From Escherichia coli (lineage in GTDB: Bacteria > Pseudomonadota > Gammaproteobacteria > Enterobacterales > Enterobacteriaceae), in assembly GCF_003334305.1 (NCBI RefSeq), contig NZ_QOWS01000016.1: a stretch of DNA of 64,000 nucleotides, one strand, 5' to 3'. Position numbers and translations under genes: made by a program. Below, in pieces: positions 26,525 through 29,753 of the stretch. Under the pieces are notes generated by a model. That model was given only the letters and a program-made list of their open reading frames with translations, was not told the DNA's origin and ran no database searches. The number at the start of each line of letters is the position of its first letter. The stretch's first letter is position 1.

Positions 26525-26562
26525 GCAGAGTGTGAACTTACTGTTTCACACTCTGCTTTTTT
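26525..26562 (+). terminator. Rho-independent terminator of ycaD
   Basis: Perfect 12-bp inverted repeat GCAGAGTGTGAA…TTCACACTCTGC followed by TTTTTTGTTT. Confidence 0.8.
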
Positions 26563-26723
26563 GTTTCTTCTATCTGACTTGCTTTATTCCAAATTTTATT
26601 CGTTTAAAAATAAAATGTGCAGCAGGTTATAATTTTGCATTTCGCTATTTCCGCACTTCTTATTTGCCGCGCATAATCCCTCGTTTTACAGATGCCCCTT
26701 TAATTTTGGCGAAGGATTTGTCT

Positions 26724-28154
26724 ATGGCTGGGAATGTTCAGGAAAAACAGTTGCGATGGTACAACATTGCGCTGATGTCTTTTATCACTGTCTGGGGTTT
26801 TGGCAACGTTGTTAATAACTATGCCAACCAGGGGCTGGTGGTTGTTTTTTCATGGGTGTTTATCTTTGCACTCTATTTCACACCTTATGCGCTAATTGTT
26901 GGTCAGTTAGGCTCGACCTTCAAAGATGGGAAGGGCGGGGTCAGTACCTGGATTAAACACACGATGGGACCCGGACTGGCTTATCTCGCCGCGTGGACCT
27001 ACTGGGTGGTGCATATTCCCTATCTGGCACAAAAACCCCAGGCAATTCTGATTGCGCTCGGTTGGGCGATGAAAGGCGACGGTTCGCTAATCAAAGAATA
27101 TTCAGTCGTAGCGTTACAGGGGTTAACGCTGGTGCTGTTTATCTTCTTTATGTGGGTTGCTTCACGCGGTATGAAATCGCTGAAAATCGTCGGTTCTGTG
27201 GCAGGGATTGCGATGTTTGTTATGTCGCTCCTGTATGTGGCGATGGCGGTAACCGCGCCTGCGATTACTGAAGTGCATATTGCGACCACAAACATTACCT
27301 GGGAAACGTTCATTCCTCATATCGACTTTACCTACATTACCACTATTTCAATGCTGGTTTTCGCGGTTGGCGGAGCAGAGAAGATTTCTCCTTACGTTAA
27401 TCAAACGCGCAACCCAGGAAAAGAATTTCCAAAAGGGATGCTATGCCTGGCGGTGATGGTTGCGGTTTGTGCCATTCTGGGCTCACTGGCGATGGGGATG
27501 ATGTTTGACTCGCGTAATATCCCGGATGACTTAATGACTAACGGTCAATATTACGCCTTTCAGAAGCTGGGCGAGTATTACAACATGGGTAATACTTTAA
27601 TGGTGATTTACGCCATTGCGAATACCCTGGGACAAGTAGCTGCGCTGGTATTCTCGATTGATGCCCCGCTTAAAGTGCTATTAGGTGATGCTGACAGCAA
27701 ATATATTCCAGCCAGTTTATGTCGTACCAACGCTTCTGGTACGCCCGTTAATGGCTATTTTCTGACCCTGGTGCTGGTGGCAATTCTGATTATGCTGCCG
27801 ACTCTCGGCATCGGTGATATGAACAATCTCTATAAATGGCTGTTGAATCTTAACTCGGTAGTGATGCCGCTGCGTTATTTATGGGTATTTGTTGCATTTA
27901 TTGCAGTCGTTCGCCTGGCGCAGAAATATAAACCAGAATATGTCTTTATTCGTAATAAGCCTCTGGCAATGACCGTCGGGATTTGGTGTTTTGCCTTTAC
28001 CGCCTTTGCCTGCTTGACGGGGATCTTCCCGAAAATGGAAGCCTTCACTGCAGAGTGGACCTTCCAGTTGGCGCTGAATGTTGCAACGCCGTTTGTGCTG
28101 GTAGGATTAGGACTGATTTTCCCGCTGCTGGCGCGTAAAGCGAATAGTAAATAA
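26724..28154 (+). CDS. ycaM: ycaM, APC-family amino acid/polyamine-type transporter (476 aa)
   Basis: ORF track 26532..28154 trimmed to ATG 26724 (MAGNVQEKQLRWYNIALMSFITVWGFGNV); polytopic membrane protein. Confidence 0.9.
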   Translation: MAGNVQEKQLRWYNIALMSFITVWGFGNVVNNYANQGLVVVFSWVFIFALYFTPYALIVGQLGSTFKDGKGGVSTWIKHTMGPGLAYLAAWTYWVVHIPYLAQKPQAILIALGWAMKGDGSLIKEYSVVALQGLTLVLFIFFMWVASRGMKSLKIVGSVAGIAMFVMSLLYVAMAVTAPAITEVHIATTNITWETFIPHIDFTYITTISMLVFAVGGAEKISPYVNQTRNPGKEFPKGMLCLAVMVAVCAILGSLAMGMMFDSRNIPDDLMTNGQYYAFQKLGEYYNMGNTLMVIYAIANTLGQVAALVFSIDAPLKVLLGDADSKYIPASLCRTNASGTPVNGYFLTLVLVAILIMLPTLGIGDMNNLYKWLLNLNSVVMPLRYLWVFVAFIAVVRLAQKYKPEYVFIRNKPLAMTVGIWCFAFTAFACLTGIFPKMEAFTAEWTFQLALNVATPFVLVGLGLIFPLLARKANSK

Positions 28155-29063
28155 TTATTGTGGTCGGTGACGCTGACTCTGGCAGATCTGACCCGTTTTT
28201 ACATAATCGAGAAATGCGCGCAAGCCGCAGGACATATACTGGCGGTTTGGATAATAGATCTGGAAGCCTGGACGCTCTGTGCTCCAGTCTTCCAGTACAC
28301 ATTCTAAACGACCAGTATCAAGGTACTCCTTGATCTGTTCATAGAGCAGATACCCGATACCAGCACCCATCAAAACGGCCTCCAGTTCAGCATCAACATC
28401 ATCCAGAATGATATTTCCTGCGACAGCAATTTCCAGCTCCTTTGCAAATTGCCAGTGGAAAGGTTTGCCGCTGGGATAACGAAAAACAACACATTGATGA
28501 TTAAGCAGATCATGAGGATGGCGGGGTTTGCCATATCTTGCAAAGTACTCTGGCGTTGCTGCTACACATAATTTCACTGGCGGGCCGATCGCCACGCTGA
28601 TCATATCTTTTTCGACGATGCCACTAAGTCGAACGCCAGCGTCAAAGCCCTGTTGGACGATATCGACAAGAGAATCGTCAGTTGTGAGCTCGACTTTAAT
28701 ATCAGGATATTCACGTGTGAAACCAACCAGTAAAGGCATTAAAAATATACGTGCAGCTACCCGGGCGGCATTGATTTTGAGCGTTCCTGTCGGTGTCAGA
28801 CGAAAATCATTCATCTCATCTAACATGATCTGAATTTCGTCGAAAGCTGGGCGCAATCGTTCATAGAGATTAGAACCCGCTTCCGTTAACGATACGCTTC
28901 GGGTTGTCCGATTGAATAAGCGAATTTTAAGACGTTGTTCCAGTGTTTTAATACTATGGCTAATGGCGGACGAGGATAAGCCTAATTCATCGCCCGCTGC
29001 ACGAAAGCTTTGATTACGGGCCACGGCAAAGAAAGTGGCAAAGTCAGACATATTCATCCGCAT
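28155..29063 (-). CDS. ycaN: ycaN, LysR-family transcriptional regulator (302 aa)
   Basis: N-terminal HTH (FRAAGDELGLSSSAISHSIKTLEQRL) plus LysR substrate-binding domain. Confidence 0.9.
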   Translation of the reverse strand: MRMNMSDFATFFAVARNQSFRAAGDELGLSSSAISHSIKTLEQRLKIRLFNRTTRSVSLTEAGSNLYERLRPAFDEIQIMLDEMNDFRLTPTGTLKINAARVAARIFLMPLLVGFTREYPDIKVELTTDDSLVDIVQQGFDAGVRLSGIVEKDMISVAIGPPVKLCVAATPEYFARYGKPRHPHDLLNHQCVVFRYPSGKPFHWQFAKELEIAVAGNIILDDVDAELEAVLMGAGIGYLLYEQIKEYLDTGRLECVLEDWSTERPGFQIYYPNRQYMSCGLRAFLDYVKTGQICQSQRHRPQ

Positions 29064-29066
29064 TAG

Positions 29067-29079
29067 TGAAAATCCTTCA
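29067..29079. promoter_or_regulatory. Candidate LysR-type T-N11-A operator in the ycaN/ycaK divergent region
   Basis: TGAA-aatcc-TTCA dyad (T-N11-A) just upstream of the ycaN start and about 85 bp upstream of the ycaK ATG. Confidence 0.3.
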
Positions 29080-29162
29080 TTAACTCATCCTGAATCATCA
29101 CGTTTACAGGATTATGCCGCCTGCGTAAAGTGCGCTCCAGAACTTAACGTGGAGGTAAAATT

Positions 29163-29753
29163 ATGCAGTCTGAACGTATTTATTTGGTATGGGCCCATCC
29201 TCGTCATGATTCATTGACCGCACATATTGCTGATGCGATCCATCAGCGGGCAATGGAGCGGAAAATACAGGTGACGGAACTCGATTTATATCGGCGTAAT
29301 TTCAACCCGGTGATGACGTCGGAAGATGAACCAGACTGGAAGAATATGGATAAACGTTATTCTCCAGAGGTTCATCAGCTTTATTCAGAGCTGCTTGAGC
29401 ATGACACGTTAGTGGTGGTTTTTCCTCTCTGGTGGTACAGCTTCCCGGCAATGCTAAAAGGATATATTGACAGAGTATGGAATAATGGGCTGGCTTATGG
29501 AGATGGGCACAAATTACCATTCAATAAAGTTCGTTGGGTGGCGCTGGTTGGAGGAGACAAAGAATCATTTGTCCAGATGGGCTGGGAAAAAAATATAAGC
29601 GATTATTTAAAAAATATGTGCAGTTATCTTGGTATTGAAGATGCCGATGTCACTTTCTTGTGTAATACAGTGGTATTCGATGGGGAAGAACTTCACGCGA
29701 GCTATTATCAGTCGTTATTATCTCAGGTACGGGATATGGTAGATGCACTATAA
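29163..29753 (+). CDS. ycaK: ycaK, flavodoxin-like NAD(P)H:quinone oxidoreductase family protein (196 aa)
   Basis: Protein MQSERIYLVWAHPRHDSLTAHIADAIHQ…; divergent from the LysR gene ycaN. Confidence 0.88.
   Translation: MQSERIYLVWAHPRHDSLTAHIADAIHQRAMERKIQVTELDLYRRNFNPVMTSEDEPDWKNMDKRYSPEVHQLYSELLEHDTLVVVFPLWWYSFPAMLKGYIDRVWNNGLAYGDGHKLPFNKVRWVALVGGDKESFVQMGWEKNISDYLKNMCSYLGIEDADVTFLCNTVVFDGEELHASYYQSLLSQVRDMVDAL

Follow-up and report, generated by a model that had tools for sequence, protein, structure and literature searches.

A conserved dyad over the ycaN start codon as the probable operator of the LysR-type regulator YcaN in the divergent ycaN–ycaK region of Escherichia coli

The divergent Escherichia coli genes ycaN, encoding a LysR-type regulator, and ycaK, encoding an NAD(P)H oxidoreductase, share a spacer of 99 bp (29064-29162), and a 21-bp dyad at the ycaN edge of this spacer (29063-29083, core TGA-N7-TCA) is probably the cognate high-affinity operator of YcaN. 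Comparisons across species showed that the dyad site is under strong constraint and that, across Proteobacteria, the presence of its core goes along with a recognition helix of the His36 type in the neighbouring LysR regulator. An earlier note on the same DNA had proposed a LysR regulator–target layout with autoregulation and activation of the divergent gene; synteny, the conserved footprint, the spacing and the association between helix and dyad all speak for that proposal. The arrangement is an ordinary regulator–target one and belongs to a known kind of system, with no new mechanism. Roughly 19 LysR regulators of E. coli, YcaN included, are still without a function, and a published systems study left the direct targets and the motif of YcaN open. 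The note had also considered the inducer and role of the pair as not established, and function and ligand are indeed unknown for YcaN according to both a 2022 study and a 2024 review.

The analysed window, that is, the whole stretch of 64,000 nt, contains the gene order ycaD–ycaM–ycaN–ycaK–pflA–pflB. The features of the ycaN–ycaK region that are used throughout this work are the following:

28155-29063, minus strand: ycaN, LysR-type regulator of 302 aa (ORF list, RefSeq annotation, NCBIfam LysR models).
29063-29083, no strand: extended dyad TTAGTGAA-AATCC-TTCATTAA, centre 29073, proposed high-affinity YcaN recognition site (RBS / IR1).
29067-29079, no strand: core T-N11-A box TGAAAATCCTTCA, the dyad of the earlier note, with invariant TGA, central T and TCA.
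29073-29077, minus strand: ycaN Shine-Dalgarno AAGGA, inside the dyad centre and right arm, read from the sequence.
29084-29102, no strand: candidate low-symmetry activation site (ABS / IR2), for example TGAATCATCACGT at 29091-29103.
29103-29108, plus strand: ycaK -35 TTTACA, from the promoter scan.
29126-29131, plus strand: ycaK -10 TAAAGT, from the promoter scan, with a 17-bp spacer from the -35.
29151-29155, plus strand: ycaK Shine-Dalgarno GGAGG, read from the sequence.
29163-29753, plus strand: ycaK, NQO1/MdaB-like flavodoxin-fold NAD(P)H oxidoreductase of 196 aa, the proposed target gene.

The start codon of ycaN (CAT on the plus strand) lies at 29061-29063 and the ATG of ycaK at 29163. 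Many E. coli chromosomes match the region at 100% identity, the two genes being annotated there as ycaN (LysR family) and ycaK (NAD(P)H oxidoreductase). YcaK scored 353.5 bits against NCBIfam NF007280, whose equivalog cut-off is 162, and its structural relatives in the PDB are NQO1/NQO2-type enzymes and bacterial quinone reductases. Thus, coordinates, RefSeq, NCBIfam and PDB agree with the 99-bp divergent spacer between a LysR-family ycaN and a quinone-reductase-like ycaK that had been described before. LysR regulators are proteins of about 300 aa with an N-terminal winged helix-turn-helix and a C-terminal periplasmic-binding-protein-like effector domain. YcaN is a member of this family, with full-length matches both to many NCBIfam LysR models and to LysR structures in the PDB, the latter being 3mz1 and, as second-best, CrgA 3hhg (E=1e-30). 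The top NCBIfam model, YafC, reached 160 bits, which is under its equivalog cut-off, and therefore YcaN gets no named ortholog; GcvA and AaeR were other top models and MetR was not among the best. Translation of ycaN starts at M1, which is kept in the orthologs while M3 and M5 are not, and the recognition helix of the protein, SSSAISHSIK, carries Ser35 and His36.

At the other end of ycaN, the stop codons of the convergent genes ycaM and ycaN abut at 28154/28155 with zero gap, and the pair appears as a convergent excludon in the ExcludonFinder list. The ycaM ORF (26532-28154, 540 aa, GTG start) exceeds the annotated YcaM of 476 aa (1,431 nt in locus L081) by ∼64 codons, and this upstream extension is probably not translated.

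The earlier note had pointed to a TGAA-N5-TTCA dyad at 29067-29079 that fits the T-N11-A pattern and lies at the ycaN start, and the sequence reads as described, with TGAA at 29067-29070, AATCC in the middle and TTCA at 29076-29079. The exact pattern TGAA-N5-TTCA occurs 4 times in the 64-kb window, where 1.5 occurrences are expected, and among random 105-nt sequences of equal composition 34% contained a perfect 4+4 dyad whose arms are 5 nt apart (P≈0.34), so that by itself such a dyad is not above chance. The dyad can be extended to 21 bp, with arms that are complementary at 7/8 positions (P=0.04 at a 5-nt spacer, 0.26 across spacers of 1-11). Allowing up to 2 mismatches, no other copy of this 21-mer occurs in the window. 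Read on the ycaN strand it is TTAATGAAGGATTTTCACTAATG, and its first base on the plus strand, 29063, is the A of the ycaN ATG, that is, the last base of the dyad on the ycaN strand. Chance was rejected because the dyad is conserved across species and paralogs, not on the basis of symmetry alone.

To evaluate this conservation we used a scan of one genome per species, which yielded 11 YcaN orthologs at 60-75% identity and 69 paralogs at 37-45%. The orthologs include Limnobaculum, Rahnella, Cedecea, Serratia proteamaculans, two ‘Enterobacter’ isolates, Symbiopectobacterium and a record labelled Caballeronia. The divergent layout of classical LysR operators was found throughout: a ycaK homolog (50-57% identity) lies divergently beside ycaN in 11/11 orthologous loci, and the spacers measure 99-102 bp, with the exception of 116 bp in Symbiopectobacterium (locus L011), where the ycaK ORF is truncated. 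The 12 spacers could be aligned gap-free from the ycaN start codon past the -10, and the TGA, the central T and the TCA of the core were invariant in all 12 sequences. The T-N11-A dyad of classical operators is thus present with 7/8 complementary extended arms and an invariant core. Position by position, 14 of the 21 nucleotides of the extended dyad (29063-29083) were invariant in 11 sequences, as were all six of TTTACA (29103-29108, plus strand) and all six of TAAAGT (29126-29131, plus strand). The stretch between the dyad and the -35 (29084-29102) had 4/19 invariant positions and a strictly fixed length, the ycaK 5′ UTR 1/34, and the third-codon positions of the first 90 ycaN codons 3/90 (3%), in each case among 11 sequences. 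When 700 bp were divided into 35 bins of 20 bp, coding DNA included, the bin holding the dyad was the most conserved of all. Both orthologs and paralogs retain a purine-rich dyad centre (GAGA, GAGGG, GGGA) at the position of the ycaN Shine-Dalgarno.

Two of the orthologous loci are unusual in other respects. The L011 locus belongs to Candidatus Symbiopectobacterium ‘North America’, in which ycaN is interrupted by an in-frame stop near codon 65 and ycaK is cut down to an ORF of 132 aa; both genes look like recent pseudogenes, and their spacer is nonetheless intact. In the record labelled Caballeronia sp. dw_276 (L002), YcaN is 73% identical to that of E. coli and the spacer is of the enterobacterial type, which suggests a mislabelled genome or horizontal transfer.

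The predicted position of the dyad relative to ycaK is that expected of a LysR recognition site. The promoter scan found TTTACA-17-TAAAGT as the sole plus-strand sigma-70-like site, from which we infer that ycaK transcription starts at about 29138, ∼7 nt past the -10. The dyad lies at a fixed distance of 19 bp from the -35, and its centre, 29073, falls at about -65 relative to the start predicted from the -10. A location of about -65 is the textbook position of LysR recognition sites. In comparable systems, IR1 has been placed at -63 for MetR and at -65 for GcvA (Oliver et al. 2016, PMC5002191), and IR2 at -41 and -43, respectively (PMC5002191); it is by analogy with the latter that the candidate activation site of YcaN was placed at 29084-29102. 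Inspection of 29084-29110 gave no clear T-N11-A box common to all orthologs, since a compensated 1-nt shift makes the several candidates of E. coli differ from those of the orthologs. E. coli has a second dyad in this stretch, ATCCTGAA-N10-TACAGGAT (7/8) at 29087-29112, which overlaps the ycaK -35; it is not conserved among the orthologs, in which the stretch is changed by the same shift. On the opposite strand, the candidate ycaN promoter consists of a weak -10, CATAAT (29116 to 29111, minus strand), without a conserved -35. Our promoter scan of the region called no ycaN promoter, and a published promoter scan likewise found none.

Whose site is the dyad? We searched for the core TGA-N7-TCA within 150 nt upstream of the regulator gene in orthologs and paralogs, with the following results:

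Orthologs: core in 11/11 loci.
Paralogs with His at YcaN position 36 (helix SA[IL]SH): core in 17/26.
Paralogs with Gln, Tyr or Leu at position 36: core in 0/43.
Coding-region control stretches: core in 0.

The association between His36 and the core among paralogs was strong (Fisher p=5e-10, a statistic that ignores shared ancestry). In nearly all the positive paralogs the dyad adjoins the start codon of the regulator and has a purine-rich centre, and the TGA and TCA arms were invariant in base identity over 29 sequences, down to about 40% protein identity. The paralogs bearing the dyad come from Rhodospirillales, Sphingomonadales, Rhizobiales, Burkholderiales, Pseudomonas and a deltaproteobacterial MAG. 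The genes that face them are diverse and include, for the 13 paralogs checked, 5 aldo-keto reductases, 3 cupins, 2 Zn-ADHs and 2 CMD/AhpD-like proteins. The dyad therefore belongs to the regulator and not to ycaK. When the paralog loci (L012-L052) were aligned on the dyad, a second conserved block, TGCCGATT.TACC.TCTAATC, became apparent. The paralogs have in common a second dyad, GATT-N9-AATC, about 20-36 nt beyond the first and centred 27 bp from it, which is a candidate for the activation site of the clade. A -10-like TAAATT also occurs in the paralogs at the same dyad offset as the TAAAGT of ycaK. Among the loci compared, the operator–promoter layout as a whole is a property of the regulator clade. 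Ser35, which is adjacent to His36 in the YcaN helix, corresponds to a base-contacting residue discussed for CrgA (PMC2724274).

A precedent for a His-type helix reading this box is provided by MetR. The ycaN box at 29067-29079 matches exactly, central T included, the MetR consensus TGAAnnTnnTTCA, which has been defined experimentally (PMC5002191, PMC4239095). In K-12, the MetR box that lies over the start codon of metR itself (locus L082, 2317-2329) is TGAAAGTCCTTCA, identical at 12/13 positions to TGAAAATCCTTCA, and an AAGGA ribosome-binding site occupies the same place inside both the metR and the ycaN boxes. The two helices, SALSHQ in MetR and SAISHS in YcaN, have the same His. YcaN is not a MetR ortholog, because the two proteins share just 26% identity over the N-terminal 126 residues only (E=4e-10). 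MetR is thus an independent, experimentally anchored case that supports the reading of this box by a His-type LysR helix.

The same resemblance raises the possibility that the box is a MetR site, or a site shared with MetR or with another LysR paralog such as QseA or AaeR, and that YcaN is not its main binder. Homocysteine-loaded MetR would then control ycaK and/or ycaN. Besides the exact fit to the MetR consensus and the near identity to the box at the metR start, this explanation can draw on gSELEX, in which effector-free QseA was reported to bind near ycaN. Against it, the dyad occurs beside YcaN-type genes in Rhodospirillales, Sphingomonadales, Rhizobiales and a deltaproteobacterial MAG, and MetR orthologs have been reported to be absent from those alphaproteobacterial orders (PMC4239095); the dyad also follows the kind of helix that its neighbouring regulator possesses, and neither ycaK nor ycaN appears in the comparative MetR regulon tables. 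In the accessible part of the PPTP-seq data, moreover, the ycaK reporter, like that of ycaN, was nearly flat over the transcription factor knock-downs, ycaN not being among the targets; knock-down of hns raised ycaK about 1.9-fold in the same part of the data. We consequently regard MetR or another paralog as an unlikely main binder, and take the match to the MetR consensus to show a specificity that the two regulators would share, not membership in the MetR regulon. MetR may bind the E. coli box in addition to YcaN, and, the match to its consensus being perfect, it could link ycaK to homocysteine or nitrosative stress as well.

A second alternative accepts YcaN as the protein at the dyad and holds that there it only autoregulates ycaN or represses ycaK, its activated targets lying elsewhere (ycaC, ycaD, focA). 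This would agree with the available part of the ycaN-deletion RNA-seq of Rodionova et al., in which ycaC went down and ycaD and focA went up, the text available from that study not naming ycaK, and in which PycaC and PycaD are given as predicted YcaN targets. The ycaK promoter, furthermore, has a good -35 (5/6) and might need no activator. The same part of that report gives 702 differentially expressed genes in late-exponential cultures, a number that suggests indirect effects and so tells against this alternative. No dyad-like box was present in the ycaC–ycaD spacer or in noncoding DNA elsewhere in the 64-kb window, and a YcaN-type box at ycaC–ycaD was accordingly rejected as an explanation of the RNA-seq changes. 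The spacing between the dyad and the -35 and -10 is free of indels in 12 species and recurs at the same offset in paralogs, and this exactness indicates that the site takes its position from the divergent promoter. Targets confined to other loci therefore seem to us as improbable as a MetR site, and we assume, by analogy, that YcaN activates ycaK rather than purely repressing it.

Other published data on the two genes were also considered. In glucose M9, ChIP-exo with myc-tagged YcaN detected 6 sites, each of them weak (signal/noise 1.06-4.45), and no peak at the ycaN/ycaK spacer. Three of these sites (yfiD/ung, yihP/yihQ and yobF) recur in the lists of other factors. As the sites are few, weak and in three cases recurrent, the experiment looks uninformative rather than negative. 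Row 12 of the YfeD list (PMC8464067, Dataset S4) assigns the site 939919-939929 to ‘b0900 ycaN’, although these coordinates are next to dmsA (b0894), so the label looks like an annotation slip. Under bactericidal stress ycaK expression increased 2.4- to 8.9-fold and that of many flavoprotein genes rose with it, a non-specific response. According to EcoCyc-type predictions cited in PMC9068703, ycaK would be controlled by Nac; a Nac site in the spacer was rejected, as the ycaN–ycaK spacer contains zero ATA-N9-TAT.

It is very improbable that the conservation stems instead from translation of ycaN, with the arms flanking the Shine-Dalgarno and forming a small mRNA hairpin that tunes ribosome access. 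In favour of this reading, AAGGA is part of the dyad, the two arms might pair with each other in the transcript, and the sole arm change, T to C at 29076, is one that an RNA helix would accommodate as a G-U pair. Against it, shuffled sequences fold just as well as the 71-nt leader (z=-0.26), whose best fold is not the dyad hairpin, and an Rfam search gave zero matches; on these two grounds an RNA element was rejected. The arms are also fixed without compensatory changes and the centre bearing the Shine-Dalgarno varies, contrary to what would be expected if the Shine-Dalgarno or pairing were the constraint, and the presence of the dyad depends on a DNA-reading residue of the protein.

Within E. 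coli, ycaN–ycaK is an accessory module, for among 5,426 complete genomes no more than about 3,320 contain it in full. About 1,000 genomes (O157:H7, O55:H7 and others) show a clean joint loss of both genes that leaves a 111-nt remnant of the 3′ end of ycaN between ycaM and pflA (L081, 3556-3666). The disappearance of the two genes together in O157:H7-type E. coli supports a regulator–target pair. A further ∼1,060 E. coli genomes gave zero match to the 1,701-bp query. The spacer was ≥99% identical in 3327/3328 of the E. coli genomes having it, and variation within the species is therefore too shallow to inform about constraint on the dyad. Among the complete genomes there are also five or six plasmid-borne copies of the spacer or the pair, and a few strains carry two copies.

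The closest analogues of the system are MetR–metE for the motif and the layout, and CrgA–mdaB for the gene pair. Like the proposed YcaN operator, the high-affinity MetR dyad of metR–metE lies over the Shine-Dalgarno and start codon of the regulator, at -63 to -65 of the divergent target. As in other ‘group one’ LysR systems (Oliver et al. 2016), one spacer serves there for activation of the target and repression of the regulator, as is predicted for YcaN, and a weaker site near -41 to -43, such as would be expected for YcaN, completes the arrangement. The two systems differ in the target (methionine synthase versus the flavin oxidoreductase YcaK) and in the length of the spacer (236 bp versus 99 bp). 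The ligand of MetR is homocysteine, and binding of MetR to its box is known from experiments, that of YcaN to the dyad being predicted from sequence comparison.

CrgA of N. meningitidis represses its own gene and, via T-N11-A sites, activates mdaB, a divergent gene for a quinone oxidoreductase; it responds to alpha-methylene-gamma-butyrolactone (PMC2724274). CrgA (PDB 3HHG) belongs to the same broad LysR subfamily as YcaN and its gene likewise diverges from one for an NAD(P)H quinone oxidoreductase of the flavodoxin fold, although MdaB and YcaK are different members of the shared fold. At the position of YcaN His36, however, CrgA has an Arg (SAVSRIVK), and its 63-bp footprint is of a different sequence. 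CrgA forms an octamer on two adjacent 30-bp sites. CrgA is thus a functional analogue of YcaN, not a motif analogue. The ‘sliding dimer’ operators of BenM, CbnR, OccR and DntR (PMC11495319) resemble the ycaN–ycaK region in having a symmetric T-N11-A site far from the promoter and a divergent regulator, and BenM differs in its arms, ATAC-N7-GTAT. Classical operators of this kind combine the recognition site with a low-symmetry activation site at the -35 (PMC11495319), and they display DNA bending and a ligand response; for YcaN we infer these properties from the likeness.

These data allow a mechanism to be proposed. A YcaN dimer would occupy the dyad at about -65 of ycaK, and a second dimer of the same oligomer would touch weakly symmetric DNA by or over the -35 (about 29084-29110). 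A small-molecule signal, most likely of the quinone or electrophile type given the target genes of the clade and the CrgA precedent, would shift this second contact, upon which RNA polymerase would fire ycaK. The YcaN complex would also overlie the ycaN leader and start and hold ycaN transcription down. Such negative autoregulation is to be expected because the putative operator covers the ribosome-binding site and start codon and because its downstream contacts would overlap the weak ycaN promoter; MetR at metR–metE and CrgA at crgA–mdaB are precedents for it.

Taken together, these comparisons provide a defined putative YcaN operator (29063-29083), a predicted ycaK promoter and a single primary candidate target. 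They also offer a residue-to-motif rule, His36 with TGA-N7-TCA, which is common to MetR, and they flag possible MetR cross-talk at ycaN–ycaK. The search for the inducer is narrowed, as the evidence suggests, to quinones, Michael acceptors and reactive carbonyls. We can also conceive, with considerable doubt, that a widespread His36-type LysR clade of alpha-, beta-, gamma- and deltaproteobacteria, YcaN included, shares the MetR DNA code TGA-N7-TCA, with the operator always over the ribosome-binding site of the regulator itself and each member activating one small enzyme that detoxifies carbonyls, quinones or peroxides. NQO1, a relative of YcaK, is a hallmark ‘phase II’ enzyme in animals. If this broader view were true, the His36-type clade would be a bacterial counterpart of the electrophile-induced ‘phase II’ response.
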